DNA of 64,000 bases from Acidobacteriota bacterium (lineage in GTDB: Bacteria; Acidobacteriota; Vicinamibacteria; Vicinamibacterales; CAVVIG01). The notes under the pieces were generated by a model. The model saw nothing but the letters and a program-made list of their open reading frames with translations. It had not been told where the DNA came from and searched no databases. Both the position numbers and the translations under genes were made by a program. The DNA lies in assembly GCA_003222395.1 (NCBI GenBank), contig QHWB01000034.1, positions 147,645 through 211,644 of the forward strand, in the 5' to 3' direction. The first letter of the stretch is position 1, and every line of letters begins with the position of its first letter. Below are positions 27,768 through 64,000 of this stretch, in pieces.

Positions 27768-27778
27768 GAGATTCCTCC

Positions 27779-30547: not shown

Positions 30548-30571
30548 CGGAACTCCTCTCCGTCGACCGCG

Positions 30572-30601: not shown

Positions 30602-30639
30602 CGGCAATCGGCGCGCGCCTGCGCTCGTGTTTCACGTGT

Positions 30640-30668: not shown

Positions 30669-30693
30669 CCACGCACATCTGGAGGTTGCAGTC

Positions 30694-40611: not shown

Positions 40612-40696
40612 TGGACGGTCTTTAGACCGTCCCACACCGGCACGGTCTGAGACCGTGCCCACCGGAGGTCCCGAGGATACGAAGAGGGAGAATCTC

Positions 40697-44374: not shown

Positions 44375-44375
44375 C

Positions 44376-44399
44376 GCAGCCCTGAAGGGCTGCGCTACC
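44376..44399 (+). repeat. Hairpin-family member in the 39-nt qhpD1-qhpC1 spacer
   Basis: 'GCAGCCCtgaaGGGCTGCgctacc', a 7-bp perfect stem. It starts 2 nt after the qhpD stop and sits just before the SD 'AAGAGGAG' of qhpC. Confidence 0.5.
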
Positions 44400-44413
44400 A
44401 AGAGGAGTAACAC

Positions 44414-44746: not shown

Positions 44747-44787
44747 GCGCACGCCAGCCGGACCGCTTGAATCGGGAGATCAATGAC

Positions 44788-46219: not shown

Positions 46220-46309
46220 GCGCAAAGCTTTCAAGTTTCATCTAAGGTGACAGTGCTCTCTTCTGGGGTCCAATCTCACGGTCCTGAACGATTTCAAGGG
46301 AGGAGCAGC

Positions 46310-49222: not shown

Positions 49223-51117
49223 GTGTAGCGCGGTTCCTTCGCGTCGCGCTGCACCGCCTCCCGAAACAGGCGCTCCGCTTCGACGAGATCACCGCCCGCA
49301 CCGACGATCATCCCGAGCGAATTCCACTGCGACGGCTCCGCCGGATCGCGCGCGATGGCGTCCCGAAAGGAGCTCGCGGCCTGCTGGAGATCGCCGCTGT
49401 CGCGATGAAGCTCGCCGAGGCGGCGGTAGATCCGCGCGTCGGTGGGCACGGCGCGGGCGCCGCGGCGCAGCGCATCGATCGCGCCGTGGCGATCCTTGAT
49501 CGCGACGCGGCAGTCGGCGAGCGCCAGATACGTGGCCGCAAATCCCGGCAGCCGCGGAATCGCGCGGTCGAACTGCGCGGCTGCCTCGCGCCACCGCGCC
49601 AGCGCCACGAGCGCCTGGCCGTAGTAGTAGTGCGATTCGAAGCTGTCGATGCCTCTCGCCGCGAGCGTCTTGAAGCGGGTCGCTGCGGCGTCGTACTGCT
49701 TGTCGCGCAGGTTCAGCAATCCCGCATGGAGCAGGGCATTCAGTTCCCTGTAGTCCGCGATCTTGTCCTTCGGATCCGCGTCTGTCGACGCGCCGCCCGC
49801 GGCGCCGCCGCTCACGTACCCGAGGGCGCCGAGCTTTTCGATCAATTCGATTGGCACGTCGCCCGCCTGCGCCTGACCCCGCGTCGCGGCCGCCTCGCTC
49901 GCGAGACGACGATCGATCGCGGCGCGGAACGCGCGGGCTCGCGCCGGCTCGGCGTCGATCACGTTCTTCAGCTCCGACGGATCGCGCGCCAGGTCGTACA
50001 GCTCCGATCGCGGCGCGAGGATGAATTTCCATCGCCCCTCGCGGACGCTGCGGAGATCGCTCCAGCCGTAATGGATCCGCGGCGTCAGCGATTCGGCGAA
50101 CGCCGGCACTTCGTCGCGCGGCGCCGGTTCGCCGCGCAGGAGCGACGCGAGGCTGCGCCCCGGAAGGGATCCGGTCGACCGCGGAGGCGCCACGCCGGCG
50201 AGATCCAGAATCGTCGGGAACAAGTCGACGCTCTGCACGACGAGCGGGAGGCGCGTTCCCGGGACGATGCCGGGTCCGCGCATCAGCAGCGGCACGCGCA
50301 GCGTGGCCTGATACAAGAAGAACCCGTGCACCAGCTCGCCGTGCTCGCCGAGCGCTTCGCCGTGATCGGAGGTGAGCACGAGCAGCGTGTCGTCGCGGAT
50401 GCCGAGGCGCGCCAGCGTCCGGTCGAGGCGTCCGATCAGCTCGTCGGTCCAGGCGACTTCGCCGTCGTACGGGCGCTCGGCGTATCGCGAGGCATAGGGT
50501 TCGGGCGGTTCGTACGGCGCGTGAGGATCGTAGAGATGCACCCACGCAAACGTCCGCTGGCGCCGGTGGCGTTCGAGCCACGCCGACGCGTCGGCGACCG
50601 CGACGTCGCCGCGTTTTTCCAGGATGTCGAGGAAGCGCGCCTCGTCCGGCGCGTCGGTGCCGAGATCGAAACGATCGGAGAACTCGTCGAACCCGCGCGC
50701 CAGACCGGACTGCGACGACAGCACGATCGACGACACGAATCCGGCGGTATCGAACCCGGCGGCCTTGAACGCCTCCGCCATCGTCGGCACATCCGGGGCC
50801 AGCGCGCGCGAGATGTTGTCGCGGATGCCGTGCTGCGCCGGATAGAGGCCGGTGAAGATCGAGACGTGCGACGGCCGCGTGATCGGCGCATGCACCATCG
50901 CGTCGAGCGCCAGCGCTCCTTCGCGCGCGACCCGATCGAAGTTCGGCGTCGCGACATCGCGGCTGCCGTAGCAGCCGAGCCGATCGGCGCGAAGCGTGTC
51001 GATGGTGACGATGAGAATGTGACGAGGCGGGCCTGCGACGGCGTGCGGAGTGTTGTGATCGCAGCCGAGGACACAGAGAGGGCAGAGCACACAAAGAAAG
51101 GCAAACCACAGAGACAC
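49093..51117 (-). CDS. Sulfatase-fold (alkaline-phosphatase superfamily) enzyme fused to C-terminal TPR repeats; lipoprotein-like signal
   Basis: 'HILIVTIDTLRADRLGCYG' is the metal-binding start of the fold. The nucleophile region 'APITRPSHVSIFTGLYP' has T-x-P-x-H in place of C/S-x-P-x-R. The C-terminal third carries TPR-like repeats. N-terminus '…LCVLGC'. Confidence 0.75.
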   Translation of the reverse strand: MSLWFAFLCVLCPLCVLGCDHNTPHAVAGPPRHILIVTIDTLRADRLGCYGSRDVATPNFDRVAREGALALDAMVHAPITRPSHVSIFTGLYPAQHGIRDNISRALAPDVPTMAEAFKAAGFDTAGFVSSIVLSSQSGLARGFDEFSDRFDLGTDAPDEARFLDILEKRGDVAVADASAWLERHRRQRTFAWVHLYDPHAPYEPPEPYASRYAERPYDGEVAWTDELIGRLDRTLARLGIRDDTLLVLTSDHGEALGEHGELVHGFFLYQATLRVPLLMRGPGIVPGTRLPLVVQSVDLFPTILDLAGVAPPRSTGSLPGRSLASLLRGEPAPRDEVPAFAESLTPRIHYGWSDLRSVREGRWKFILAPRSELYDLARDPSELKNVIDAEPARARAFRAAIDRRLASEAAATRGQAQAGDVPIELIEKLGALGYVSGGAAGGASTDADPKDKIADYRELNALLHAGLLNLRDKQYDAAATRFKTLAARGIDSFESHYYYGQALVALARWREAAAQFDRAIPRLPGFAATYLALADCRVAIKDRHGAIDALRRGARAVPTDARIYRRLGELHRDSGDLQQAASSFRDAIARDPAEPSQWNSLGMIVGAGGDLVEAERLFREAVQRDAKEPRYTYNLGLTLQREHRASEAAPYFRKTLELNAGFSAARDRLAEIDR

Positions 51118-51186
51118 GGAGACACCGAGAAAATCAGACGGCGCGATCGCAAAGCGCGCAGAGAGTGAACGCCGATCGGTTCGGCG

Positions 51187-51275
51187 GCCGGCCTGCGCAG
51201 CAGGCCGGCATGCGCGGCCGGATCGGACGGAAACGCGAGCCAGGGTGGATCCTGACGGCTCGCGTTTCCGTCCGA
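51187..51275 (-). terminator. Two strong GC-rich hairpins between the tandem sulfatase-fold/TPR genes; candidate terminator(s)
   Basis: GCCGGCCTGC-gca-GCAGGCCGGC (51187-51209, 10-bp stem), plus a perfect 19-bp stem at 51223-51241 / 51257-51275 with a 15-nt loop containing GGATCC. No U-tract. Confidence 0.4.
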
Positions 51276-51348
51276 CTCCGGTCGCGCGCGGCGCTCCGCG
51301 CCGCCGCCGAACCGAGGCGTCTCTGCACCTCTGTGTCTCCGTGGTTGG

Positions 51349-53700
51349 TTACCTCTGCGCGCTCGTGTTCCTGCGCGCACTCGCGAGCTTCGCGCGCGCT
51401 TCCTCTCGTTCTCCGGCGGCCGCTTCACGTGCGGCGTCGTTCGCGCGTCCGAGACGCGAATAGACGTCGGCCAGCACATAGTGACCGAGTGGAACGACTT
51501 CCGCGTCGGGATGGCGAGCCATTCCCGTTGTCGCCGCGGCTTCGGCGCCGATCAGGTCGCCGGCATCGAGCCGCGCCTTCGCGAGATACAGGTAGCCGCT
51601 GCCGAAGTCCGGATTCGCCCGCACCGCTTCGTCGAAGTGGCGGACCGCATCGGCGGCGCGGCCCGATGCCATGAGGATCTTGCCGAGATTGAAATGGGCG
51701 CGATACGCGTCGGGACTGCGCGCGATCTCGGCCTCGTACTCGCGCGCGGCGGCGTCGGTCTGGCCTCGCGCGTCGCGGACGAGCCCGAGATCGTAATGCG
51801 CCATCGGTTGATCCGCTTTGTCTTTCAGCGCGTCCAAAAGACTCCGTTCGGCCTCGTCGTACCGCTTCATCTCGATGTAGCACTCGCCGAGCTTCGTCAG
51901 AAACGCCGGACGTTCGACGTTGTCGGCGACCGCGCGCTTCAACGCCGCCTCGGCGCGCTCGAACTCGCCGCGCCGCATCCAGATGTCGGTGAGCTGGTAG
52001 CGTGCTTTCGAGTCGCGCGGGTTCAGCGCCAGCACCCGCTCGAAGCCGGCTTCGGCCGCGTCGTTCTTTCCGTCGGTCTTGTAGGCGAGCGCCAGGCTGA
52101 ACGCCGCGGTCTGGTTGTCGGGATCGAGCGCGAGCGCCTTCTGGTACGCCTCGAGCGACTCCTTCGGCCGCTTCGCCTTCGCATTCATGTTGCCGAGCAT
52201 GAGGTACGCCTCGACGATCTCCGGGTCGGCCGCCAGCGCCCGGCGGACTTTTGAGATCCCTTCGTCGAGGCGTCCTTCCACCGAATCGAGCGCCGCCTGC
52301 TTCATCAGGTTGTACAGGGCGATCTTGTCCTTCGGATCGCCGCGGCGCCGCGTCTCCAGCGCGCGCGGGCTGATGCTCGAGCCGACGTACCCCAGCGCGC
52401 GAAGCCGCTGCTCGACGTCGGGGTCGACCGCCCGCGGCGCGGCGGGCGCAGACGCGGATGCCGTGCGCGCGACCAGCTCCTGCAGCGCCTGCGCCTGAAT
52501 GTCGGTGCGACCTGGATTCACTTCGGCGACGTTGCGCGTCTCACCGGGATCGGTTTCGGTGTCGTAGAGCTCGCGCGTTGGTGCGGCGATGAAGTGGTAG
52601 CGCCCGTCGCGAATGGCGGTCAGCTCGCTCCAGCCGTAGTGATGGCGCGGGTACCACGTCTCGGACAGCGCGACGAGGTTCAGCCGTTCACCGCGAACGA
52701 GAGGCAGCAGGCTGCTTCCCTGAACCGCTTTCGGCCCGTCGATGCCGAGCACCTCGAGCACCGTCGGCATCACGTCGACGATGCGCACCTGGTCGGTGAC
52801 GATGCGCGAGGGCAGCGTGGGACCGGCCACGATGAGCGGGATTCTGACGGTTGCGTCGTACACAAAGAACCCGTGCTGCTCTTCGCCGTGCTCGCCGAGC
52901 GACTCGCCGTGATCGCCGAGGACGACGACGACCGTGCGATCGAGGCGGCCGTCGCCGGCGAGATGATCGAGCAGACGGCGCAGCTGCAGATCGGCTGTCG
53001 CAATCTCCGCGTCGTACGCGCCGATCATCGTCGGCGGAAAGCGCTCGCGGATCGATGCGGGCGGATCGTACGGTGCATGCGGCTCGTAGAGATGCACCCA
53101 CGCGAAGAACGGGCGCGTCCGATCCTGGTCGAGCCATTCGATGGCTTTCGCCACGACCTCGCTGCCGGGCCGCTGCACCGCGTCGAGGCCGACGTCCATG
53201 CGGTACTTGCCGAGATCGAAGTCGTCGAAGAAGCGCTCGAAGCCCTGGGCGATGCCCCATCGACGATCGAGGACGAACGCGGCGACGAACCCGCCGGTGC
53301 GGTACCCTCGGGCGCGCACGACTTCTGCGAGCGTCTCCTGCTCCTCGCCGAGATAGAAGCCGCCGTTGTCGCGCACGCGATGCGCGCCGGGGAAGGTTCC
53401 GGTCATGAGCGACGCGTGCGCCGGGAGTGTCAGCGGCGCCGACGTGGCCGCCTGCGCGAACCGGACGCCGCGGGCCGCGAGGGCGTCGAGCGCCGGCGTC
53501 TGCGCCGCGGCATACCCATAGCTGCCGACATGATCCGCCCGCAGCGTGTCGATGGTGACGATGAGGATGTTGAGTCGGGCATCGCGGCGCGCGCGCGCGA
53601 TCCACGAGCCGAACGCGATTGAGGCGAGCGCCAGACCGCACGCGAGCGCGACGAGCGCGGTCGCAGACGCCCTGCGCGTAGCCCCCGTGTCCTTCGGCAC
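51349..53700 (-). CDS. Sulfatase-fold enzyme fused to C-terminal TPR repeats, paralogue of 49093..51117
   Basis: 'LNILIVTIDTLRADHVGSYG'; nucleophile region 'APLTLPAHASLMTGTFP' (T-x-P-x-H); a long C-terminal TPR array. I prefer GTG 53700, which is followed by a membrane anchor/signal 'ATALVALACGLALASIAFG'. The ORF-track start at 53955 would overlap the divergent small gene. Confidence 0.7.
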   Translation of the reverse strand: MPKDTGATRRASATALVALACGLALASIAFGSWIARARRDARLNILIVTIDTLRADHVGSYGYAAAQTPALDALAARGVRFAQAATSAPLTLPAHASLMTGTFPGAHRVRDNGGFYLGEEQETLAEVVRARGYRTGGFVAAFVLDRRWGIAQGFERFFDDFDLGKYRMDVGLDAVQRPGSEVVAKAIEWLDQDRTRPFFAWVHLYEPHAPYDPPASIRERFPPTMIGAYDAEIATADLQLRRLLDHLAGDGRLDRTVVVVLGDHGESLGEHGEEQHGFFVYDATVRIPLIVAGPTLPSRIVTDQVRIVDVMPTVLEVLGIDGPKAVQGSSLLPLVRGERLNLVALSETWYPRHHYGWSELTAIRDGRYHFIAAPTRELYDTETDPGETRNVAEVNPGRTDIQAQALQELVARTASASAPAAPRAVDPDVEQRLRALGYVGSSISPRALETRRRGDPKDKIALYNLMKQAALDSVEGRLDEGISKVRRALAADPEIVEAYLMLGNMNAKAKRPKESLEAYQKALALDPDNQTAAFSLALAYKTDGKNDAAEAGFERVLALNPRDSKARYQLTDIWMRRGEFERAEAALKRAVADNVERPAFLTKLGECYIEMKRYDEAERSLLDALKDKADQPMAHYDLGLVRDARGQTDAAAREYEAEIARSPDAYRAHFNLGKILMASGRAADAVRHFDEAVRANPDFGSGYLYLAKARLDAGDLIGAEAAATTGMARHPDAEVVPLGHYVLADVYSRLGRANDAAREAAAGEREEARAKLASARRNTSAQR

Positions 53701-53879
53701 GGCGACATTGTAGCGAATGCGAAAATCACGCACTTTCCTGATTGCCCGACCTTCGCACGCCCGGTAGGATCTGGGGGCAACCGAACGACCCAATCGCCGA
53801 GTAGCGCGGAGCCGCTCGGTGGATCTACGCGGCACTGAGAGAGCCAATCGCCGATAAACGCCGAGCGGCCGAAGGCCGC

Positions 53880-53922
53880 GAGGTACAGGTCGCGGGGGTG
53901 GGGCCCCGCGACAAATAAGAAA
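53880..53922. repeat. Half copy (E) of the ~90-nt repeat: second hairpin plus A-rich tail only
   Basis: 'GTCGCGGGGgtggggCCCCGCGACaaataagaaaa', a 9-bp stem at 53889-53912. It lies immediately upstream of the SD 'AAGGAG' and ATG 53933. Confidence 0.5.
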
Positions 53923-53932
53923 AGGAGACACC

Positions 53933-54337
53933 ATGCGACGGCTGCGGATCCTCATCGCGTCGAGTGCGATTCTGGCTATCGGAACGTCGAGCTTCGCGGG
54001 CGATTTTCAGGACAGCGTGGCGAAAGCGGCGCGCGACGCCGCCGGGCAGCAGACCGAGCAGCGATCCGGGAACCGCAACCCGTACCTCTGGCCGGGCGCG
54101 GCGCTCTTCGTCGCCGGCATGTCCCTGGCGGTGTACGGCTTCCTGCACACGAGCGGCGGCGAATTCGTGTCGGGCGAAGTGTCGAAGGAATCGAAGACAG
54201 GACTCGGCGGCGCGGGGCTCGCCGTCGCCGCAGCCGGCGGAGCACTGTTGTACTGCGGAACGCTGCGCGCGCGTCACGCGCCGTCGATTACAGTCGGTCG
54301 CGGACGCCTCACCGTCGCGAAGCAGGTTTCGTGGTAA
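53933..54337 (+). CDS. Small secreted/membrane protein of unknown function, paralogue of 40697..41104 (qhp-linked copy 2)
   Basis: 134 aa. 'SSFA|GDFQDSVAKAA', Gly-rich segments 'GAALFVAGMSLAVYGF' and 'GGAGLAVAAAGGALLYCG', C-terminal 'LTVAKQVSW'. Collinear with copy 1. Confidence 0.7.
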   Translation: MRRLRILIASSAILAIGTSSFAGDFQDSVAKAARDAAGQQTEQRSGNRNPYLWPGAALFVAGMSLAVYGFLHTSGGEFVSGEVSKESKTGLGGAGLAVAAAGGALLYCGTLRARHAPSITVGRGRLTVAKQVSW

Positions 54338-54340
54338 TCC

Positions 54341-56284
54341 CTACCGAGCGTAGCGCCGCGCATGCGCGCCGATCTCCGCTGCCATGGCGGCATCGCCCTG
54401 CTCGCGCGCGCGGGCGAGCGCCCGCGATGCCGCGACTCGCGCGTCGTCGAAGCGTCCGACCGCCGCGTAAGCCGCGGCCAGCGTATCCAGCGCGCGCGGA
54501 TCGCGGTCGCCCGTCCGACGATTGACCTCTAGCGCCAGATCGAGCGCGCGCGCGCCGTCGCGGACGCGCGGATCGTCGCTCGTCGCCAGCAGCCGCGCGA
54601 GATTGTGTTTCAGATTGATGTTGTCGGGCTGCGCCGCGGCTGCGCGCGTCAGCACGGCCGCCGCCTGCGCGCTGTCGCCGGTTTGCGCGAGCGCGAACGC
54701 GAGGGTGTTCGGCACTTCCACATCGGTGACGCCGCCGTCGAATGCCTGGCGCAGGTCGTCGGCCGCCTCGCGAAGACGGCCGCGGCGCGCCAGGAGCATC
54801 CCCCGGGCGGCGTGCGCATGCAGGCGGCGTCCATCGAGCGCGATCGCGTCGGCGTAGCGATCGCCCGCTTCCTCGAAGCGTCCGGCCTGCGCCAGGCGAT
54901 CGCCTTCCCGCTCCGCCTGCGTCGCCTTCAGGATCGCGAGGTTCTTCCGCGCAAGATCGTGGTCGGGCACCAGGCGCAGCGTCTCTTCATACCGTCCGAT
55001 CGCTTCGTCCTCGCGGCCGGCTTCGGCAAGGGCAATCGCGAGGTTGTAGGTGGCCACGTCGTCGCGCCGGTCCACATCGGCCGCGCGCGCCCACAACGCG
55101 ATCGAATCGCGCCAGTATGCGGTCTGACGAAACGCAATCGTGCCGGCGGCCGCGACGAGCGCGAGCATCGCGAGCGCGACCGCCGGTGTGCGGGAGCGGC
55201 GTGCCGACAGGCGCGACACGGCAGCGCCGACGACAATCCATGCGATGACGCCCGGCATGTAGGTGTAGCGGTCCGCCGTCGCCTGCAGACCGCTGGGCGT
55301 CAGGCCGGCGACCGGGGCGAGCATCAGCAAGTACGCGAGCGATGCAACTGCAAATGCCGGCCGGCGCACGCGAAGTCTCCACGCGGCGACGGCGGCCACG
55401 GCGATCGCGCCGGTCGCCAGCGCGAGCGGCAGCATGTCGACGGCGGGCGCGATCGCGAGCGGATCGAGCGGCGACAGGCGAACGGGCCACACGATCCGTC
55501 CGAGATATCTGAACGGCGCCGTCGCCGCCATCGTCAGACGCGCTCCAACTCCCACTTCTTGTACTGAGGCGATCTCGCGCGCACGCGACTCCGCGATTGC
55601 AGCAGCCGCTGCGAGAACGGCAAACGGGACTTTCTCGGCGGCGAGCCGACCGGGGCTCGTGCGGCGCCGGCGCTGGAGCGGATAGACGTCGAGGAGCAGC
55701 AGCACAATCGGAAACGCGATGGCGTTGGCGCGCGCGAGCAGCGATGCGCCGTACAGCGCAATCGACGCGATCAACCGTCCGTTCACGTAGGCGAGCAGCG
55801 CGAGCAGCAGCGCCGTCAACGAGAGGACGTACGGAAACGCGCTCGCCCACGCGACCGGTTCGACCTGCAGCGGATGCACGAGAAAGAGGGCTGCGGCGGT
55901 GATCGCCGCGACGCGGCGGCGCCGCGAGTCGAGCGCCGCTCTTTCGACGAGGCGAAGGGTGACGATGTACACAAGCCAGCCGTTGATGAGGTGCCCCGCG
56001 AGGCTCAACGCGTGAAACGGCGTCGGCGACAGACCGAACAGCGACTTGGTCGCCGACCACGCGAGCCAGGCGAGCGGCTGGTAGTGGCCCATGTGCGTGG
56101 TCGTGAACGCCCAGGACCATGTACCCGGCGCGGCGAGGTGTTCGTTATCGACGAGAACGGACGGGTCGTCCCAATTCACGAATCCGTTCCGCAGGACGGG
56201 CCAGAGCGCGGCCAGCCCCGCGAGCGCGAGCGCTCCGGCGTCGACGGCGCGAACCGCCGGGCGACTCTCTGGTAAAGAACTCAT
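54341..56284 (-). CDS. Polytopic GT-C-like (TMTC/PMT-like, DUF1736-type) membrane protein fused to C-terminal TPR repeats
   Basis: ATG 56284 (MSSLPESRP…). The first-loop acidic motif 'FVNWDDPSVLVDNEHL' is followed by ~10 hydrophobic segments and then TPR repeats. Only the last 647 codons of ORF 54341..57544 are coding. Confidence 0.65.
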   Translation of the reverse strand: MSSLPESRPAVRAVDAGALALAGLAALWPVLRNGFVNWDDPSVLVDNEHLAAPGTWSWAFTTTHMGHYQPLAWLAWSATKSLFGLSPTPFHALSLAGHLINGWLVYIVTLRLVERAALDSRRRRVAAITAAALFLVHPLQVEPVAWASAFPYVLSLTALLLALLAYVNGRLIASIALYGASLLARANAIAFPIVLLLLDVYPLQRRRRTSPGRLAAEKVPFAVLAAAAAIAESRAREIASVQEVGVGARLTMAATAPFRYLGRIVWPVRLSPLDPLAIAPAVDMLPLALATGAIAVAAVAAWRLRVRRPAFAVASLAYLLMLAPVAGLTPSGLQATADRYTYMPGVIAWIVVGAAVSRLSARRSRTPAVALAMLALVAAAGTIAFRQTAYWRDSIALWARAADVDRRDDVATYNLAIALAEAGREDEAIGRYEETLRLVPDHDLARKNLAILKATQAEREGDRLAQAGRFEEAGDRYADAIALDGRRLHAHAARGMLLARRGRLREAADDLRQAFDGGVTDVEVPNTLAFALAQTGDSAQAAAVLTRAAAAQPDNINLKHNLARLLATSDDPRVRDGARALDLALEVNRRTGDRDPRALDTLAAAYAAVGRFDDARVAASRALARAREQGDAAMAAEIGAHARRYAR

Positions 56285-56404
56285 GGAGCAACGAATCGAC
56301 GCGACATTGTGGACCGCTTGTGCAGACGTTGCACAGTGTATGCGACCTTCTCTTGCGAAAAAATGTTGCGGAAGCGGCCCCCGTAAGAGGAAACTCATCG
56401 CACC

Positions 56405-58147
56405 ATGGTGAGACAAGCGGCCCTCGGATTGATGGTCGTCGCGGCGCTCGCCGCCGCGAAGCCGGCATACGCCCAAACGACGCCGAAAGACGAAGGCATC
56501 CCGGTCGACAACGCGCTCGTGCGATCGAAGTGCGGCAGCTGCCATCGCGCCGACGACAAGGGACGGATGACGCGCATCTCGTACCGCCGCGCGACGATGG
56601 AGAACTGGGAACGCACGATCCGGCGCATGGTCACGCTGAACCACGTGGCGCTCGAGCCCGCCGACGCGCGCAGCATCCTCAAGTACCTCGCCGATCGCCA
56701 GGGCCTCGCGCCGGAAGAAGTGCGCCCGATCGAATTCGAAGCGGAACGGCGCACGATCGAGTACGCCTACAAAGCCGACGAGACGACGGCCAATCTCTGC
56801 TCGTCGTGCCATTCGGTGTCGCGCGTGATGAGCGAGCGCCGCACGAAGGAGGAATGGGACCTGCTGATTGCGATGCATCGCGGCTATTACCCGCTCGTCG
56901 ACAATCAGCCGCTGAACGGTCCGCAGGGTTTCCGCCGCACGCGTCCGATCGAAACCGAGCCGGGGCCCGACGGCCGTCCGCCCGACAACCGCCACCCGGT
57001 CGATCGCGCGCTCGAGCACCTGACGAAAACCTATCCGCTGCAGACGTCGGAATGGTCCGCGTGGTCGGCCGCGATGCAGCCGCCGAAGCTGGCGGGACGA
57101 TGGGCCGTCGTCGGATCGCAGCTGGGGAAGGGCGCCATCTACGGTCAGGTGACGGTTGCGGCCGACGCGGGCGCGCCCGATTCCTTTACGACTGAGATTC
57201 GCTATACCGTCGCCCGCACCGGCGAATCGGTCTCGCGCAGCGGGAAGGCGCTCGTCTACACCGGGTACCAGTGGCGCGGACGCGGCAACGACTGGCGCGA
57301 GGTGCTCTTCGTCGAACGCGACTGGAAAGAGATGTGGGGGCGCTGGTTCAGCGGCGCCTACGACGAGACCGGCATCGACGTGAAGCTGACGCGCCTCTCG
57401 AGCGATCCCGTCGTCTTCGGCACGAGCGCGACGGCCCTGAAGAGGGGGTCGACAGGGTCGACCGCGTCGTCGGCGCAGAACGTCAAGATCTACGGCGCGA
57501 ATCTGCCGGCGACCGTTCGACCCGAGGACATCGGGCTCGGACAAGGCGTGAAAGTCGCGCGCGTGATCAGCGCGAGGCCGGAGGAGATCGCGATCGACGT
57601 CGACGTCGACGCATCAGCCTTGATCGGCGCCCGCGATGTGTCGGTAGCCGGCACCGTGAAGCCGGCGGTGCTGGTCGTCTACGACAGGATCGACGCCGTG
57701 AAGGTGGAGCCGGTGGCCGGCATGGCGCGCGTCGGCGGCGCCGTGTTTCCGAAGCAGCTCCAGCAGTTCGAAGCGATCGGCATCAACAACGGACCCGATG
57801 GCAAGCTTGGCACTGCCGACGATCTGAACCTCGGGCTCGTCAACGTGAAGTGGTCGCTCGAGGAGTATCCCGCGACCTTCGGAGACGACGACATTCAGTT
57901 CGTCGGCAAACTCGATGAGAGCGGCCTCTTCACGCCGAATGTCGACGGCCCGAACCCGAAGCGGAGCGGGAATCGCAACAACGTCGGCGACGTGTGGGTC
58001 GTCGCGGAGCTGCTTGATGCTCCCGCTACGCCGCCGGCGCCGGGATCGCCGCCGTCGATGTCGGTGCAGCCGCTGCGCGGACGCGCGCATCTGCTCGTCA
58101 CCGTGCCGCTCTACATGAACTGGTTCACCGAGGACACCAAACAATGA
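56405..58147 (+). CDS. qhpA: Quinohemoprotein amine dehydrogenase alpha subunit, copy 2
   Basis: Signal 'MVRQAALGLMVVAALAAAKPAYAQ'; heme sites 'KCGSCH' and 'LCSSCH'; 'MTRISYRRATMENWERTIRRM'. Collinear with copy 1. Confidence 0.85.
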   Translation: MVRQAALGLMVVAALAAAKPAYAQTTPKDEGIPVDNALVRSKCGSCHRADDKGRMTRISYRRATMENWERTIRRMVTLNHVALEPADARSILKYLADRQGLAPEEVRPIEFEAERRTIEYAYKADETTANLCSSCHSVSRVMSERRTKEEWDLLIAMHRGYYPLVDNQPLNGPQGFRRTRPIETEPGPDGRPPDNRHPVDRALEHLTKTYPLQTSEWSAWSAAMQPPKLAGRWAVVGSQLGKGAIYGQVTVAADAGAPDSFTTEIRYTVARTGESVSRSGKALVYTGYQWRGRGNDWREVLFVERDWKEMWGRWFSGAYDETGIDVKLTRLSSDPVVFGTSATALKRGSTGSTASSAQNVKIYGANLPATVRPEDIGLGQGVKVARVISARPEEIAIDVDVDASALIGARDVSVAGTVKPAVLVVYDRIDAVKVEPVAGMARVGGAVFPKQLQQFEAIGINNGPDGKLGTADDLNLGLVNVKWSLEEYPATFGDDDIQFVGKLDESGLFTPNVDGPNPKRSGNRNNVGDVWVVAELLDAPATPPAPGSPPSMSVQPLRGRAHLLVTVPLYMNWFTEDTKQ

Positions 58148-59574
58148 CGGCAATGTGGGCGGCGCGCGAACATCATCGTTTCGAGGCGGCGGGCAGACCG
58201 TTCGTGTATCTGGTCCCCAGCGCGGCGATCTTCGAGCTCGACGAAGCGAGCGACTCGGTGCTTCGAACGCTCAACGAGCGTCCGCGCACGCGCGAGGAAT
58301 TGACGGAGGCGTTCGGCGACGCGGAGCCCGCGATCGCCGAGCTCGCGCGCGTGCAGGCGATCGCTGAGGTCAGCGTCCCTCCGCCCGCGACCCCCAAGGT
58401 CATCCCGCTCGCGCCGTTTCCATTGACCACAATGGTCCTCAACGTCACGAACCAGTGCAACTTGAGCTGCACGTATTGCTACGAGTACGGCGAGGACAAG
58501 ATCGTCGACACCGAGAACGGCCGGCAGCCGAAGTTCATGACCGAGGAGACGGCGCGACAGAGCGTCGATTTCCTGCTCAAGGAATCGGGCAAGGTCGCGC
58601 ACATCACGTTCTTCGGCGGCGAGACGCTGCTGAACTTTCCGGTGCTGCGGAAGACGATTGCCTACGCGCGCCGCCGCGCCGCGGAAGAGGGCAAGGACGT
58701 CGACTTCAGCATGACGACGAACGCGACGCTCCTGAAGCCGGACATCATCGAGTTCCTCGCGGAGAACCGGATCGGCGTCACGATTTCGATCGACGGCCCG
58801 CGCGAGGTGCAGGACAAGTTCCGCGTCTTCAGCAACGGCGCCGGCAGCTACGACGTCGTGGCGCCGAAGATTCGCGAGCTGCTGAAGCGTCACCGCAGCC
58901 GGCCGATCGGCGCGCGGGTGACGCTGACCTCCGCGAACCTGGACGTGAAGCGGATCTACCGTCACCTGACGGAGGAGATCGGATTCTGGGAAGTCGGGTT
59001 CGCGCCGGTGACCACGTCGGCGTCGCGCGGACACGCGATTTCCGACGACGGATACGATCGGATGCTGTCGCAGTTTCGAGAGCTCGCGTACGAGTTCCTC
59101 GAGGCGTCCGTCGCGAACCGCCACCACGGATTCTCGAACGTGAAGGAAACGCTCGAGGAGCTGCACAAGGGCGTCAGCAAGGCGTATCCCTGCGGCGCGG
59201 GGCTCGGACTGCTCGGGGTGGCGACCGGCGGCGACGTCGCGCTCTGTCATCGGTTCGCTGGATCGGATGCGCACAAAGTTGGCAGCGTGACGACCGGCGT
59301 CGATCGTCAGGCGCAGGCCGCGTTTCTCGAGAAGCATCACATCGCGAACAAGACCGACTGCAGCGTCTGCTGGGCGCGGCCGCTGTGTTCCGGCGGCTGC
59401 TACCACGAGGCGCACACGCGGTACGGCGACACCGGTCACGCGAACCTGCACTACTGCGAGTGGATTCGCGGCTGGACCGGCGTCTGCCTGCAGATCTACG
59501 GGGAGCTCTCAGTTCGTAATCCAGCGTTCTTGGCGCAGTTCGACGACCAGGATATGAAGGAGACGGTGTCGTGA
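58144..59574 (+). CDS. qhpD: Radical SAM/SPASM maturase QhpD, copy 2
   Basis: ATGA overlap with qhpA2. 'NVTNQCNLSCTYCYEYG'; SPASM region 'CSVCWARPLCSGGCYHEA'. Confidence 0.85.
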   Translation: MTAMWAAREHHRFEAAGRPFVYLVPSAAIFELDEASDSVLRTLNERPRTREELTEAFGDAEPAIAELARVQAIAEVSVPPPATPKVIPLAPFPLTTMVLNVTNQCNLSCTYCYEYGEDKIVDTENGRQPKFMTEETARQSVDFLLKESGKVAHITFFGGETLLNFPVLRKTIAYARRRAAEEGKDVDFSMTTNATLLKPDIIEFLAENRIGVTISIDGPREVQDKFRVFSNGAGSYDVVAPKIRELLKRHRSRPIGARVTLTSANLDVKRIYRHLTEEIGFWEVGFAPVTTSASRGHAISDDGYDRMLSQFRELAYEFLEASVANRHHGFSNVKETLEELHKGVSKAYPCGAGLGLLGVATGGDVALCHRFAGSDAHKVGSVTTGVDRQAQAAFLEKHHIANKTDCSVCWARPLCSGGCYHEAHTRYGDTGHANLHYCEWIRGWTGVCLQIYGELSVRNPAFLAQFDDQDMKETVS

Positions 59575-59900
59575 TTCACTTGAAACCGATCAATCGCAAG
59601 GCCGTTCGCGTCGAGCAGGCGACTGACCACGACGTCGTCGCGCTGCAGCGGACGGCGCTCCCGCAGAACCCGCACTTCCCGCTCGGCTGCTCGCTGATCT
59701 TCTCGCCCGGTTGGGAAGCCGATCGCACGGGCGGAACCGCGGGACTGTGCCAGCCGGTCGAGCGCGATCTCTTCGACTGCCACATCGGCTGTTACTGGCC
59801 GGCGCAGGTGCCCGACCAGTTGAACCACGCACCCGACTGGACGGCGAAATGCGCCGCGGCCCAGAAGGACTGGCGGAAGATCGATCTCATTTTCCCGTAG
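59571..59900 (+). CDS. qhpC: Quinohemoprotein amine dehydrogenase gamma subunit precursor, copy 2
   Basis: The GTG start overlaps the qhpD2 stop (GTGA). The core 'GCSLIFSPGWEADRTGGTAGLCQPVERDLFDCHIGCYWPAQVPD' has the same eight-residue spacing as copy 1. Confidence 0.85.
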   Translation: MIHLKPINRKAVRVEQATDHDVVALQRTALPQNPHFPLGCSLIFSPGWEADRTGGTAGLCQPVERDLFDCHIGCYWPAQVPDQLNHAPDWTAKCAAAQKDWRKIDLIFP

Positions 59901-59905
59901 CCTCT

Positions 59906-61018
59906 ATGCGCAAACTTGCATTCGCATTCGCACTCGCGCTCGCGGCGTGCGCCATCGTTCATGCCGCCGACAGGAAGGTCAGCGCCGGCAACGGCACGTT
60001 GATCATCGGCGCGTATCCGAAGCAGTTCTGGATTATCGACGAGGCGACGGAGAAGATCGTCGGCACGATCCCGTACCAGTCGGGCATTCCCCGGCGCACT
60101 TCGATCTCGCGCGACCGCAAGCGCTTCTACACCATCGAAGCGCAGATGGAGAAGGTCGAGGTCGTCGACATCGCGGCGCGCAGGACGATCGACACCTTCA
60201 CGCTCAGCGAGGGCAACAAGAAGGTCCGCATTCGAAGCCTCGAGCCGGATCCGCTGAATCGCTTCGTCGTCATGGTGATCGCGTCGGCGACGAAGCTGAT
60301 CGATCGCTTCGATATCGGCAACCCGACGCTGGTCCAGTACGACTTGCAGCAGAAGAAGGTCGTGCGCACGATTCCGTGGCCGAACAACGAGGAGCGCCAG
60401 AACGCGAACATCCTCTTCTCGCCGGACGGCAAGCTGATGTACCTGTTCACCGAACAGGACGTCCTGATCTACGAAACCAATACGTTCACACAGGTCGACA
60501 AGTGGGAACTGTCCAAGCCGATTGAGGAAGGTTTCGGCCGCCTCGAGTTCGGACCGCGCGACGTGATGAACGACGAGCCGGGCTTCTACACCGCCATCTT
60601 CAACGTGTCCGATCCGGTCCAGCATCGGCGGACCATGGGCATCGGCCGCGTGAACCTGGCGGCGAAGACCGTCGATTTCTACACGCTCGGTCCGTCGACG
60701 CCGGTCAGCTTCACGCTGGCGCCCGATCGCAAGAGCGGCTTCGGCTTGTTCGATGACATCGGACGCTACGAATTCTGGAAGTTCGATCTCGAGCGCCACC
60801 GGCTCGCGAACCGCGTCGAGTTCAAGGGGCGGCCGCGCATGGGATTGAAAACGAGCTCCAACGGCAAGGTGCTCTACATCTACGTGGCGGGGAACACGAT
60901 CGATCTCTACGACGCCGACACATACCAGTATCTGCGCACGATCACGCTCGACGGCGACATGACGACGGAGCTGTTCGTCTTCAATACGCCGCCGTCAACG
61001 ACTACGCCATCGCAATGA
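59906..61018 (+). CDS. qhpB: Quinohemoprotein amine dehydrogenase beta subunit, copy 2
   Basis: ATG 59906; signal 'MRKLAFAFALALAACAIVHA'. Collinear with copy 1 (…GNGTLIIGAYPKQFWIIDEATEKIVGTI…). Confidence 0.75.
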   Translation: MRKLAFAFALALAACAIVHAADRKVSAGNGTLIIGAYPKQFWIIDEATEKIVGTIPYQSGIPRRTSISRDRKRFYTIEAQMEKVEVVDIAARRTIDTFTLSEGNKKVRIRSLEPDPLNRFVVMVIASATKLIDRFDIGNPTLVQYDLQQKKVVRTIPWPNNEERQNANILFSPDGKLMYLFTEQDVLIYETNTFTQVDKWELSKPIEEGFGRLEFGPRDVMNDEPGFYTAIFNVSDPVQHRRTMGIGRVNLAAKTVDFYTLGPSTPVSFTLAPDRKSGFGLFDDIGRYEFWKFDLERHRLANRVEFKGRPRMGLKTSSNGKVLYIYVAGNTIDLYDADTYQYLRTITLDGDMTTELFVFNTPPSTTTPSQ

Positions 61019-62814
61019 GCGCCCGCGGCCCGAGCGAGGCGCCGGAGGGAAGCCCGGCGAAGCCGGGCCGCCGAGTGAGCGCGAGCGGGGGTGGGGCCCC
61101 GCGAGCAGTGATTAATGTTGACACCAGCATCCGACGGGCGCTCCGGTTCATCGTCCCCTACTGGCGACGGCTGGCGCTCGTCCTCGCGCTGAGCGCGCTC
61201 AGCACGGCGCTCTCGCTGTACCTGCCGCTCCTCTCTCGCGATTTCTTCGATCGCGCCCTGATCGGCCGCGATCTCGGGACGCTCGTCCGCGTCGTCTCGC
61301 TGTTCGCGGCCGTCAGCGTCGCCAGCTTCGTCGTGAACGTCGTGAGCGGAATGCGATACACGCGCGTGTCGGCCGACATCCTGTTCGACATGCGGCTCGA
61401 GCTGTACCGCCACCTGCAGCGGCTCTCCCCGCGGTTCTACGTGCGCACGCGGATGGGCGACATCATGTCGCGCATCAACAACGACGTCGGCGAGATTCAG
61501 CGGATCGCCGCCGAGACGGCGCTCGCGTGGGTCGGCAACGTGCTGTTCCTCGCCGGAACGATCGCGATGCTCGCGTGGCTCGACGTCCGCCTGTTCGTCC
61601 TCACCGTCGCGACGACGCCGTTCGGCATCTGGGCGCTGGTGCGCTATCGCACGCGGCTCGAAGTCGAAATCGGAAAACTGCGCCAGCGCAGCGCCGACAT
61701 CGGCAGCTTCCTCATCGAGACGCTCCAGTCGGTGAAGCTCGTCGTCACGTCGAACGCGCAGGAGCGCGAGGTCGGACGCTTCCGCGAGCGGAACGCGGCG
61801 TTCATCGACTCGCTGATGTCGATGCAGCTCCTCTCGTACTTGTCCGGCGGGCTGCCGGGCCTCGTTCTTTCCGCCGGAACAGGCGCCGTGTTCGTATACG
61901 GAGGCCTCCGCGTCATAAACGGATCGATCACCGTCGGCACCTTCGTCGCGTTCATGGCGTACCAGATGCGCTTCCTGCCGCCGCTGCAGGCGCTGATGGG
62001 CATGTACGCGAACCTCGCGACCGTTCGGGTCTCCCTGCGCAGGGTCGCGCAGATTCTCGACGAACCGGTCGACGTCATCGAAGCGGCCGACGCGGTCGAT
62101 CTGCCGTCGGTCCGGGGCGACGTCGAATTCGACGAGGTCACCGTATCGTTCGGCCGCGGCGGGCCGGTGCTGGAGCGATTCTCGTTCTCCGTGCGCGCCG
62201 GAGAGACGCTTGCCATCGTCGGCCCGAGCGGCAGCGGAAAGTCCACGATTGCGGATCTGCTGCTGCGGCTCATCGATCCGGACGCCGGCGCCGTGCGCCT
62301 CGACGGTCGCGATCTCCGAACGGTGCGGCTCGCCGATCTTCGCCGCCGCGTGGCACTGGTCGAGCAGGAGCCGTGCATCCTGCACGCGACGATCGCCGAG
62401 AACATCCGATACGCGCGTCCCGGCGCGTCGGACGAAGAGGTGTCGGCCGCGGCCGATCGAGCGGCGCTCGCGCCGTTCATCGAATCGCTGCCGGAGAAGT
62501 TCGCGACCGTGGTCGGAGAGCGCGGCATGGCGCTGTCGGCCGGCGAACGTCAGCGGATCGCCATCGCCCGCGCGCTGCTGGCCGATCCTGACGTTCTCGT
62601 GCTCGACGAACCGAGCGCCGCACTCGATCCGACCTCCGAGCGCCACATCGCCGATGGCTACGAGTCGGTGATGCGCGGCCGCACCACCATCGTCATCACA
62701 CACCGCCTCGACCTCGCGCGCAGGGCCGACCGCGTCATCGAGGTCCGATCCGAGTCGGACCAGGGACGAACCACGGCCAGACCGTGGTTCGGCCACGATC
62801 TGTCTCGAGTCTGA
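61015..62814 (+). CDS. qhpF: ABC exporter (fused 6-TM permease and ATPase), candidate QhpF
   Basis: Walker A 'GPSGSGKST', signature 'LSAGERQRIAIARAL', Walker B 'VLVLDEPSAALD'. The start is uncertain. ATG 61015 gives an ATGA overlap with qhpB2. In-frame GTG 61108 would instead leave a repeat-derived hairpin in the 5' UTR. Confidence 0.75.
   Translation: MSARGPSEAPEGSPAKPGRRVSASGGGAPRAVINVDTSIRRALRFIVPYWRRLALVLALSALSTALSLYLPLLSRDFFDRALIGRDLGTLVRVVSLFAAVSVASFVVNVVSGMRYTRVSADILFDMRLELYRHLQRLSPRFYVRTRMGDIMSRINNDVGEIQRIAAETALAWVGNVLFLAGTIAMLAWLDVRLFVLTVATTPFGIWALVRYRTRLEVEIGKLRQRSADIGSFLIETLQSVKLVVTSNAQEREVGRFRERNAAFIDSLMSMQLLSYLSGGLPGLVLSAGTGAVFVYGGLRVINGSITVGTFVAFMAYQMRFLPPLQALMGMYANLATVRVSLRRVAQILDEPVDVIEAADAVDLPSVRGDVEFDEVTVSFGRGGPVLERFSFSVRAGETLAIVGPSGSGKSTIADLLLRLIDPDAGAVRLDGRDLRTVRLADLRRRVALVEQEPCILHATIAENIRYARPGASDEEVSAAADRAALAPFIESLPEKFATVVGERGMALSAGERQRIAIARALLADPDVLVLDEPSAALDPTSERHIADGYESVMRGRTTIVITHRLDLARRADRVIEVRSESDQGRTTARPWFGHDLSRV
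61072..61112. repeat. Half copy (F) of the ~90-nt repeat at the 5' end of qhpF
   Basis: 'gagcgcgagcgggggtggggccccgcgagcagtg' shares the core 'gggggtggggccccgcg' with copies D and E. The stem is weaker (6 bp). Confidence 0.4.
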
Positions 62815-62819
62815 TCCTG

Positions 62820-63479
62820 ATGCGCGTCAGGGTTGCGATCATCGACAGCGGCGTTCACGCGGCGCATCCTCACGTCGGCGGCGTCGGCGGCGGCGTCGGC
62901 ATCGACGACGAGGGGCGCGAGCACGGCGATTACACCGATCGCCTCGGTCACGGCACCGCGGTCGCCGCGGCGATCAAGGAAAAAGCGCCGGACGCAGAGC
63001 TCTTCGCGGTGAAGGTGTTCGATCGGACGCTGTCGACGCGCGTCGCGAACCTGATTCACGCCATCGACTGGGCGGCGCGGAATCAGATGCACGTCGCGAA
63101 CCTCAGTCTCGGGACTGCGCGGCCCGAGCACGAGACGATTCTCCGCGAGGCCGTTGACCGCGCACGAACCCGCGGCGTCGTCATCGTTGCCGCGCGGGAT
63201 GACGGCGGCGTGCGATGGCTGCCGGGGAGCCTGCGTGGCGTGATTTCAGTTCAGCTCGACTGGGCGTGTCCGCGCGACGAATATCGCGTCGTGGAGATCG
63301 AGGGGGAGACCGTCTTTCGCGCGTCCGGCTACCCGCGCGAGATTCCCGGTGTGCCGCCCGACCGAAATCTCAACGGGATCAGCTTCGCCGTTGCCAACAT
63401 GACCGGGTTCGTCGCCAGAGCGCGCGCTGCCGCTTCGGATGAGTGGATGCAGGCGCTCGTCACCGTGGGTGTGCGATGA
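62820..63479 (+). CDS. qhpE: Small subtilisin-like serine protease, candidate QhpE (leader peptidase for the gamma subunit)
   Basis: 219 aa from ATG 62820. Catalytic-triad contexts are 'VAIIDSGV' (Asp), 'LGHGTAVAAAI' (His) and 'NGISFAVANMTG' (Ser). Lies directly after qhpF. Confidence 0.7.
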   Translation: MRVRVAIIDSGVHAAHPHVGGVGGGVGIDDEGREHGDYTDRLGHGTAVAAAIKEKAPDAELFAVKVFDRTLSTRVANLIHAIDWAARNQMHVANLSLGTARPEHETILREAVDRARTRGVVIVAARDDGGVRWLPGSLRGVISVQLDWACPRDEYRVVEIEGETVFRASGYPREIPGVPPDRNLNGISFAVANMTGFVARARAAASDEWMQALVTVGVR

Positions 63480-63859
63480 CCCTTGTCATCCGTCTGCTGG
63501 TCAACGCGGCGGCGCTGTGGGTGGCGACGCGCATCGTGCCTGGCGTCACCTATCGCGGCGACGCGCTGCCCTTTCTCGGCGTGGCGCTGGTGTTCGGGAT
63601 CGTCAACGCGTTCATCCGGCCCGTCGCAAAGCTTCTCACGTTTCCGATCATCATCCTGACGCTCGGCATCTTCGCCCTCGTCGTCAACGGCCTGATGTTG
63701 TGGCTGACCAGCGCGCTGTCCGGTGCGCTCGGCCTCGGATTCCACGTGAGAGGGTTCTGGGCTGCGCTCGTCGGCGCGCTGGTCGTCAGCCTCGTGAGCA
63801 CGCTTCTATCGCTGATCGTCGTCGATCGCTCGGACGCTAGACGGTCTCACGCCCACTGA
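63476..63859 (+). CDS. Small 4-TM membrane protein (DUF360 / 'phage holin family 4'-like)
   Basis: ATG 63476 (ATGA overlap with qhpE). 'MTLVIRLLVNAAALWVATRIVPGV…FLGVALVFGIVNAFIRPV…' is typical of this family. Confidence 0.6.
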   Translation: MTLVIRLLVNAAALWVATRIVPGVTYRGDALPFLGVALVFGIVNAFIRPVAKLLTFPIIILTLGIFALVVNGLMLWLTSALSGALGLGFHVRGFWAALVGALVVSLVSTLLSLIVVDRSDARRSHAH

Positions 63860-63986
63860 TCAGTCCGACCAGGAAGAGCACGATCGCGATTACGAGCAGT
63901 ACGTGGACAATCGATCCAATCGCGTAGACGCCGCCAAGGCCAAGCGCCCAGGCGATCAATAGAATCAGCGCGAGTGCGAACAACAT
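63837..63986 (-). CDS. 49-aa two-TM membrane peptide (lmo0937-family-like)
   Basis: Not in the ORF track because it is under 60 aa. My translation is MLFALALILLIAWALGLGGVYAIGSIVHVLLVIAIVLFLVGLISGRETV*. An SD 'GGGAGGA' sits 7 nt upstream of ATG 63986. The 3' end overlaps the convergent gene by 23 nt. Confidence 0.5.
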   Translation of the reverse strand: MLFALALILLIAWALGLGGVYAIGSIVHVLLVIAIVLFLVGLISGRETV

Positions 63987-64000
63987 GGTGATGTCCTCCC

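Follow-up and report, generated by a model that had tools for sequence, protein, structure and literature searches.

An exporter and a leader peptidase probably shared by two quinohemoprotein amine dehydrogenase gene sets at an acidobacterial qhp locus

Can one set of maturation genes serve two diverged copies of the same enzyme? The question is raised by a segment of contig QHWB01000034.1 from an Acidobacteriota bacterium (Vicinamibacterales). We call this segment the window, meaning the whole 64-kb stretch that was analysed, with the remainder of the genome outside view. The window carries two A-D-C-B gene sets, set 1 lying 10 kb upstream of set 2, for quinohemoprotein amine dehydrogenase (QHNDH), a periplasmic enzyme that oxidises amines, and an ATP-binding cassette (ABC) exporter resembling QhpF and a subtilisin-like protease resembling QhpE follow set 2. 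The biogenesis of QHNDH serves as a model for protein-derived cofactors and for the processing of an enzyme subunit in the manner of peptides made by ribosomes and modified after translation (RiPPs). To our knowledge, studies of it have been confined to Paracoccus and Pseudomonas. The explanation we prefer, with a probability of about 0.6 for the whole, is that a canonical operon became part of a composite locus in which one QhpG, one QhpF and one QhpE mature both isozymes.

The original prediction described set 2, the exporter, the protease and a DUF360 membrane protein as a chain of overlapping genes. All four overlaps were matched base for base in the list of open reading frames (ORFs) and in the junction sequences (Table 1), and the fused exporter and the 219-aa subtilisin-like protein were present downstream of set 2 as claimed. 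Four-base overlaps or 5-nt gaps link all neighbouring gene pairs of the unit. The set-2 proteins were identical in six metagenome contigs of the same species, where independent gene calls gave lengths of 580 or 571 (A), 476 (D), 109 (C), 370 (B), 599 (F), 219 (E) and 127 aa (DUF360). In these contigs a 49-aa DUF5670 gene comes next and runs in the opposite direction, which makes the DUF360 gene the last of the unit. We infer that 56405-63859 is one co-transcribed unit, qhpA2-D2-C2-B2-F-E plus the DUF360 gene. A scan of 55900-64000 returned no promoter-like sites and terminator-like sites at chance level only, and is thus uninformative on the operon boundaries; an Rfam scan of the whole window returned no matches.

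Two further observations were made on the same-species contigs. In one of them (L086, 3581-5328) qhpA2 was called as two ORFs of 383 and 199 aa, either a frameshift variant or an assembly error. All of them have a DDE transposase of the ISAZ013 family about 7 kb downstream of the operon (in L082 at 16908-17714).

Table 1. Features of the qhp locus (TBDR, TonB-dependent receptor; positions are those of the window).
Feature	Position	Strand	Remarks
Spermidine dehydrogenase (SpdH) homologue	34248-36287	+	full length; PDB 7D9I, E 3e-131; TGA/GTG overlap (GTGA, 36284) with qhpG
qhpG-like flavin monooxygenase (Trp dihydroxylase)	36284-37723	+	only one in the window; likely GTG start at 36284, overlapping the upstream stop
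TBDR1, CarboxypepD_reg type	37852-40611	+	Pfam OMP_b-brl_4, CarboxypepD_reg, Plug
Small signal-peptide/membrane protein	40697-41104	+	135 aa; directly upstream of qhpA1; no Pfam match
Set 1	41109-45942	+	A-D-C-B with its own radical-SAM enzyme; no E, F or G attached
qhpA1	41109-42899	+	part of set 1
qhpD1	42896-44374	+	part of set 1; ATGA overlap with qhpA1
qhpC1	44414-44746	+	part of set 1
qhpB1	44788-45942	+	part of set 1
Spacer between the sets	46247-56119	mixed	variable; assigned by Pfam and tblastn
Second TBDR	46247-49222	+	spacer
Sulfatase-TPR gene	49093-51117	-	spacer
Sulfatase-TPR gene	51349-53955	-	spacer
Small-protein paralogue	53933-54337	+	spacer
TPR membrane protein	54341-56119	-	spacer
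qhpA2	56405-58147	+	di-haem alpha subunit of QHNDH; Sec-type signal peptide
qhpD2	58144-59574	+	radical-SAM/SPASM enzyme for Cys-to-Asp/Glu thioethers in gamma; ATGA overlap with the qhpA2 stop at 58144
qhpC2	59571-59900	+	gamma precursor, 109 aa; probable 24-residue leader ending HDVVA; GTGA overlap with the qhpD2 stop at 59571
qhpB2	59906-61018	+	divergent beta-propeller beta subunit with signal peptide; start 5 nt past the qhpC2 stop
qhpF-like fused TMD-NBD ABC exporter	61015-62814	+	599 aa; ATGA overlap with the qhpB2 stop at 61015
qhpE, S8 subtilisin-like leader peptidase	62820-63479	+	219 aa; ATG 5 nt past the exporter stop
PF04020 (DUF360 / Phage_holin_4_2), four-TM membrane protein	63476-63859	+	ATGA overlap with the qhpE stop at 63476

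Family calls were made with the curated equivalog cut-offs of NCBIfam (TIGR03908 for alpha, 274 bits; TIGR03906 for the radical S-adenosylmethionine (radical-SAM) enzyme, 453; NF037958 for gamma, 50; TIGR03907 for beta, 223; NF049966 for QhpE, 165; NF049967 for QhpG, 240). Both alpha subunits passed (QH_alpha; 455.7 bits for QhpA2 and 467.6 bits for QhpA1). QhpA2 has the four QHNDH alpha Pfam domains, and each alpha has two CXXCH motifs, which in QhpA2 are CGSCH at residue 43 and CSSCH at residue 132. QhpD2 scored 568 bits and QhpD1 555.7 bits (quino_hemo_SAM), both with the CX3CX2C motif (CNLSCTYC at residue 105 of QhpD2), and QhpD also scored against the PapB and SCIFF maturase models. The gamma precursors scored 127.7 (QhpC2) and 128.7 bits (QhpC1) with QH_gamma. 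In an alignment with P. denitrificans gamma (1JJU chain C), C40/E49/C60/D66/C70/C74/W76/D82 of QhpC2 corresponded to Cys7/Glu16/Cys27/Asp33/Cys37/Cys41/Trp43/Asp49, the residues that make the three thioethers and the cysteine tryptophylquinone (CTQ) cofactor (PMC8172795). All eight were kept in QhpC1 too. The scores of alpha, the radical-SAM enzyme, gamma and QhpE lie well outside what chance would give.

The beta subunit is the weak point among the gene identities. QhpB2 matched TIGR03907 with an E of 1.8e-19 over profile positions 4-328 of 338, yet with 70 bits against the cut-off of 223, and QhpB1 reached 57.5 bits. A phmmer search of the PDB with QhpB2 recovered no QHNDH beta chain (1JJU and 1JMX were not matched). 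The gene keeps its place behind qhpC in 149 loci. Position, size, signal peptide and the full-length but weak profile match point to a beta subunit, and the acidobacterial protein appears to be a very divergent propeller. For the QhpG-like protein, scored on a 539-aa ORF, NF049967 was the best NCBIfam model with 235.9 bits against 240; it matched PDB 7CTQ with an E of 3e-19, and halogenases scored higher. We regard the gene identities and the operon itself as very probable.

Two features of gamma were seen beside these calls. An extra cysteine (KCAAAQ; residue 94 of QhpC2 and 95 of QhpC1) is invariant in the acidobacterial and Novosphingobium sequences (L001, L088 and L092 among them), at a position that is Ala or Ser in Paracoccus and Pseudomonas gamma. 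The mature gamma N-terminus predicted from the HDVVA| site would exceed that of Paracoccus by 9-10 residues.

NCBIfam has no QhpF model (the best matches of the exporter were MsbA-like, all under cut-off), so linkage was used as the main test of the exporter. Two collection scans with QhpC alignments gave 160 loci from Acidobacteriota (Vicinamibacterales, Bryobacteraceae, Blastocatellia), Gemmatimonadota and soil metagenomes, to which L001 and L088-L094 were added in the order statistics. Gene order after qhpB was counted in 84 non-redundant loci whose sequence runs on for 3.5 kb or more past qhpB. The order was B-F-E in 66 of the 84 loci and E-F in none, with F only in four, E only in two and neither gene in 12. 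A Novosphingobium replicon, analysed by tblastn, showed A-D-C-B followed after 1 kb by F and E, which were 45% and 50% identical to the window copies. Conserved linkage of the exporter to the qhp genes is firmly established. The claim that the ABC protein is QhpF-like had been made dependent on such linkage, and it held up with the exporter placed between qhpB and qhpE in most of the 84 loci and in Novosphingobium. The protein has the exporter domains PF00664 and PF00005, no C39 peptidase domain, and intact ATPase motifs (Walker A GPSGSGKS at 403, signature LSAGE at 507, Walker B VLVLDE at 527 and H-loop ITHR at 561).

The relation of this exporter to Paracoccus QhpF was assessed with the operon on a Paracoccus sanguinis plasmid (L175), which served as a sequence proxy for the P. 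denitrificans system. It is annotated as a divergent FAD oxidoreductase, A-D-C-B, 'subtilisin', 'ABC transporter' and AraC. The window exporter matched the qhp-linked ABC protein of this plasmid with 30% identity and 186 bits, and matched the generic half-transporters TM287/288, Sav1866 and BmrA with 245-295 bits. These scores, together with the MsbA-like profile matches and an order of F-E in the window against E-F in Paracoccus, would suit a generic ABCB-type half-transporter that was recruited independently into acidobacterial qhp operons and is QhpF in function, not by descent. However, from the Paracoccus side the window exporter outscored every PDB match, with half-transporters at 139 bits or less and full-length transporters at 168.6 bits or less. 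This fits an orthologue on a fast-evolving branch, and fast evolution of the Paracoccus protein would account for the score pattern. The proteobacterial Novosphingobium replicon also has its exporter in the same position. Sequence by itself gives no specific tie between the window exporter and Paracoccus QhpF. We consider independent recruitment unlikely, and orthology with Paracoccus QhpF plausible.

The protease passed the QhpE cut-off with 174.3 bits against 165 (NF049966). Its motifs IIDSGV, GHGTAV and GISFAV, from which a catalytic triad had been proposed, contain D9, H44 and S188. Both phmmer and BLASTP matched D9 and H44 to Asp32 and His64 of subtilisin BPN'. A profile of 35 homologues lengthened the alignment to BPN' residue 240 and placed S188 (GISFAV) on Ser221 (GTSMAS). 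In an AlphaFold2 model (pLDDT 87, pTM 0.87), H44 and S188 each lie at a helix N-terminus and D9 at the end of the first strand. Foldseek matched this model to subtilisins over nearly the whole protein, with a TM score of about 0.7 and an E of about 1e-14 (9e-15 to BPN' variants). The three residues were invariant in 75 of 75 QhpE sequences from qhp loci, one proteobacterial sequence included. The proposed triad was aligned by profile and by structure model, and the assignment as QhpE-like was supported.

One catalytic position departs from the classical S8 pattern. The equivalent of the oxyanion-hole Asn155 of BPN' is Asp128 in QhpE, and across the 75 homologues position 128 was D, Q, H, A, T, E and others but never N. 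QhpE has been reported as a single-turnover, suicidal enzyme (PMC7876137), and a tie between the absent Asn and this behaviour is speculation. From its sequence the protein appears to be a minimal cytoplasmic subtilisin-like leader peptidase without a pre- or pro-region, and cleavage of the gamma leader is predicted.

To place the two sets, we compared their gene order and identities with those of related loci. Of 88 informative loci, 47 had a G homologue as the gene directly upstream of qhpA, and the standard operon in this part of the tree (Acidobacteriota, Gemmatimonadota) is G-A-D-C-B-F-E. The order F-E after set 2 was thus observed as described but is no peculiarity of this locus: it is the norm, and E-F was found in no related locus, only on the Paracoccus plasmid. 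Close relatives matched set 2 best (A2 ~65-74%, D2 ~76-85%, C2 80-90%, B2 ~75-86%, F 72-80%, E 61-78%), so the set-2 unit is the canonical QHNDH operon of Vicinamibacterales-type Acidobacteriota. Set 2 had been called the second set; E and F do stand next to it alone, but the canonical operon is this one, with set 1 as the add-on.

Two side observations came from the same survey. A separate qhp clade of ten loci has the permuted order D-C-A-B, then a gap, then F, E and G where the flank suffices, and a pair of a TonB-dependent receptor (TBDR) and a small protein often precedes it. Seven loci with acidobacterial-type qhp genes come from metagenome-assembled genomes (MAGs) titled Bifidobacterium, Bifidobacteriaceae or cyanobacterium, and these labels are probably wrong.

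When set-2 proteins were searched across the whole window by tblastn, the two sets were 51% (A), 70% (D), 73% (C) and 55% (B) identical. No second S8 protease was found in the 64 kb, and the sole other ABC match was a nucleotide-binding domain (38% identical, 11733-12167). The statement that the only protease and the only exporter with fused transmembrane and nucleotide-binding domains (TMD-NBD) follow set 2 was correct for the window. QhpB1 homologues were numerous, at 68-95% identity. Distant relatives of set 1 (L088, L090, L106, L107 and L120) lie in complete G-ADCB-FE operons, with identities of 60-63% for A1, ~78% for D1 and ~70% for B1. Among the close relatives of set 1, three loci are ADCB-only: L092 (B1 86%) has A-D-C-B and then opposite-strand genes, and L096 and L099 have TBDR-small protein-A1-D1-C1-B1. 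In L097, D1-C1-B1 is followed by one opposite-strand 494-aa gene and then A2-D2, so the two sets stand in tandem as in the window but the spacer between them is much shorter.

A neighbour-joining tree built from concatenated A+D+B of 88 taxa (no bootstrap, Novosphingobium as the root) placed the two window sets in separate clades, each of which contains complete operons. Recent tandem duplication as the origin of the two sets was ruled out by this placement and by the low identities of A and B. Set 1 appears to be the odd one: its TBDR-small protein-ADCB cassette belongs to another qhp clade and recurs in other metagenomes, once in tandem with a set-2 operon.

A scheme for how the locus would work can be drawn from the maturation steps of the characterised Paracoccus/Pseudomonas system (PMC7876137). 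QhpD2 would install three thioethers in the cytoplasmic gamma precursor QhpC2, QhpG would dihydroxylate Trp76, the future CTQ, and QhpE would remove the leader, probably by a cut after HDVVA. QhpF, as a homodimeric ABC exporter, would carry the knotted gamma to the periplasm, where it would join Sec-exported alpha and beta. We propose that qhpG and qhpA2 of the canonical operon are now separated by a TBDR-small protein-A1D1C1B1 cassette of another qhp lineage and by a variable spacer. A single G, F and E, each descended from the set-2 lineage, would then mature two divergent isozymes, each gamma being served by its own QhpD. Different substrate ranges of the two isozymes would fit the 45-49% divergence of alpha and beta between the sets.

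The accessory genes appear by their identities to group with the set-2 lineage. The exporter was 72-80% identical to F of set-2-type operons and 62-65% to F of set-1-type operons, and the corresponding values were 61-78% and 58-62% for E and 53-60% and 38-43% for G. That the window qhpG belongs to set 1, upstream of which it lies, was ruled out by the values for G. The precursors also agree where QhpE would act. The HDVVA|LQ site is identical in QhpC1 and QhpC2, both have the N-terminal motif MxHLKPIN, and V-V-A is invariant across five aligned gamma precursors. In the P. sanguinis precursor DEVVA ends at residue 28, six residues before Cys7, which agrees with the published 28-residue leader of Paracoccus gamma (PMC7876137). 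The common site and motif make cross-processing plausible, with one QhpE acting on both gammas. We hold the sharing of E, F and G with set 1 to be slightly better supported than its absence.

The principal challenge to shared maturation is that set 1 may be matured by other copies elsewhere in the genome, with the local E and F serving set 2 only. Several observations weigh on that side. Only 64 kb are in view and further copies of qhpE, qhpF and qhpG may exist outside them; the related MAG ASF_11 has two clusters (L028 and L046), each with its own F and E. The ADCB-only arrangement in 12 of the 84 loci indicates that accessory genes are often remote, although it is silent on which copy serves which set. 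QhpD, QhpE and QhpG have been reported as single-turnover enzymes, which the authors of that work tie to their encoding in the operon of the substrate (PMC7876137), so a shared E and G would break a one-to-one logic that argues for one copy per substrate gene. Our proposal as a whole is further weakened by the absence from our searches of a promoter, terminator or shared upstream motif that points to co-regulation of the two sets, by the tree being neighbour-joining without bootstrap, by QhpB2 and QhpG falling under their NCBIfam cut-offs, and by the higher scores of the exporter on generic exporters than on the Paracoccus qhp-linked protein.

Against separate copies stand the following points. 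No second E, F or G was found within the 64 kb. The only qhpG sits upstream of set 1 yet has set-2 ancestry, and at least G must cross-serve one set. The cleavage site is the same in both precursors, and the tandem of the two sets recurs in L097. We judge maturation of set 1 by distant copies improbable and retain the shared use of G, F and E as the preferred explanation. A stronger form of it, in which QhpE, QhpF and QhpG are obligatorily shared by two deeply diverged isozymes, and selection in a Vicinamibacterales subclade keeps the arrangement within a polyamine/amine catabolic island fed by TonB receptors, is tentative, and we would put it a little short of even odds.

The DUF360 protein (PF04020, 110 bits) has four hydrophobic segments. 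Its gene was described as translationally coupled to qhpE, and the overlap was confirmed, but it is not a conserved qhp component: among the qhp loci examined it followed qhpE only in the same-species contigs and in one other species (L003, 77% identity). The same strand, the overlap with the qhpE stop and the recurrence in L003 could suggest that the protein functions in maturation or export, for instance as a partner to the exporter. This is very doubtful, as other loci have different genes after qhpE (a 297-aa unknown in L088, M16 peptidases in L090) and DUF360 lies outside the characterised qhpABCDEFGR set (PMC7876137). The gene is probably a lineage-specific passenger, though translationally coupled.

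Set 1 is under purifying selection, with dN/dS of 0.05-0.18 against L096, L097 and L099. That it is a decaying or silent duplicate, which would make the sharing of E and F irrelevant, can be set aside as highly improbable: it has no E and F of its own and the scan of 55900-64000 gave no promoter, but all four of its ORFs are intact with the haem, radical-SAM, cross-link and CTQ residues kept, selection on it is evident from the three orthologous contigs, and its layout behind a TBDR and a small protein is kept in L096 and L099.

The regulatory search covered QhpR and upstream motifs. The AraC-family ligand-binding-domain coding sequence annotated next to the operon on the P. sanguinis plasmid (205 aa) gave a best E of 1.2 by tblastn against the window, and the only regulator seen there was a MerR/HTH/cupin protein (16422-17300). 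Shared 9-mers upstream of spdH/qhpG, TBDR1, qhpA1, TBDR2 and qhpA2 were scattered GC-rich words only. No conserved block emerged when the region upstream of qhpA2 was aligned with L002, L013 and L097. A TGTGCA-N5-TGCACA palindrome at ~56319-56335 is unsupported.

The gene upstream of qhpG encodes a spermidine dehydrogenase homologue, of which a 52%-identical paralogue lies at 23676-25643. In L002, the closest syntenic MAG, a 67%-identical homologue lies between qhpF and qhpE (13283-15277), and this linkage points to a polyamine link for these QHNDH clusters. Between TBDR1 and qhpA1 lies the small protein, of ~135 aa, which is kept between TBDR and qhp genes in at least nine such loci (for example L096 1649-2044, L099 1835-2242 and L020 6348-6755). 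The TBDR-small protein-qhpA arrangement was also seen in L096, L099, L020, L022, L023 and L025, and the pair precedes qhpD in L077, L113 and L161. The small-protein paralogue upstream of set 2 (Table 1) is 43% identical, and L002 and L013 also have TPR and sulfatase genes upstream of qhpA2. Straight after the TBDR1 stop, at 40612-40660, are two adjacent perfect hairpins, GGACGGTCT-TT-AGACCGTCC and GGCACGGTCT-GA-GACCGTGCC, for which a terminator or a repeat element is possible.

Further upstream, 17327-33537 contains two class-III aminotransferases (one with an N-terminal GNAT domain), the second SpdH-like gene, two further CarboxypepD_reg-type TBDRs, an APC-family permease of amino-acid/polyamine type, and a PQQ dehydrogenase (25731-27767, minus strand). 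Four TBDRs of the CarboxypepD_reg type were counted around the locus. The surrounding genes look like a catabolic island for amines and polyamines.

Several consequences follow for QHNDH biology. Very abundant soil Acidobacteria carry the full qhp system in a different standard order, G-ADCB-FE, and their QhpE keeps the triad but never the oxyanion-hole Asn. Some lineages have two divergent structural sets and only one G, F and E in the visible DNA. With such a locus one can test which steps of maturation are tied to one paralogue (QhpD) and which are generic (QhpE, QhpF, QhpG), and whether the rule of one single-turnover enzyme per substrate in the same operon is obligatory. If sharing is obligatory, maturation of set 1 would require expression of both the set-2 operon and the spdH-qhpG unit, QhpE, QhpF and QhpG would recognise only conserved leader and core features (MxHLKPIN...DVVA|), and QhpD would be the partner obliged to co-evolve with its own gamma. 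QHNDH beside SpdH, TonB-dependent receptors and aminotransferases suggests periplasmic scavenging of polyamines and amines by Vicinamibacterales.

The locus was finally compared with known systems. With canonical G-A-D-C-B-F-E clusters of the set-2 clade (L003, L005, L008 and L019), set 2, F and E share 61-90% identity gene for gene, the same order and the tight junctions. Clusters of this form also occur in the set-1 clade (L088, L090, L106 and L107). In contrast to the canonical clusters, qhpG of the window is ~18.7 kb from qhpA2, with a TBDR, the small protein, set 1, the second TBDR, two sulfatase-TPR genes and the TPR protein between them, and set 1 is without G, F and E, all three of which are present in its closest complete relatives.

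More than 1300 species have been reported to carry the qhp system, in gene arrangements that vary (PMC7876137). With the operon of Paracoccus denitrificans/Pseudomonas putida (qhpADCBEFG plus qhpR; PDB 1JJU, 1JMX) the window shares the same seven functions (di-haem alpha, a putative propeller beta, a CTQ/thioether gamma with N-terminal leader, radical-SAM QhpD, subtilisin-like QhpE, an ABC exporter and a QhpG-like flavoprotein), the A-D-C-B core order, all gamma cross-link residues and VVA at the leader end. It differs in the acidobacterial order F-E instead of E-F, and in the acidobacterial clade G is normally co-directional and directly upstream of A, not divergent or downstream. The window has no match to an AraC-type QhpR, a beta subunit too divergent for TIGR03907, and a mature gamma with a longer predicted N-terminus and one extra conserved Cys. 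It also has two A-D-C-B sets for one G, one F and one E.

QhpE shares its fold with subtilisin BPN' and the S8 subtilases (TM 0.7), and its Asp-His-Ser triad agrees with theirs in both order and structural position. It differs from BPN' in having no signal peptide or pro-domain, in being ~55 residues shorter and in the replacement of Asn155. QhpD has been treated as related to sactipeptide maturases (PMC8172795), and RiPP-style modules for sactipeptides and ranthipeptides follow the same logic of leader-guided thioether formation, leader removal and ABC export. However, the product of the qhp module is an enzyme subunit and not a secreted peptide, and its protease is a free-standing minimal subtilisin instead of a C39 domain within the exporter. 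By these comparisons the operon is a known system with a modest architectural variant, and the composite architecture of the locus is a more interesting feature than the operon itself.

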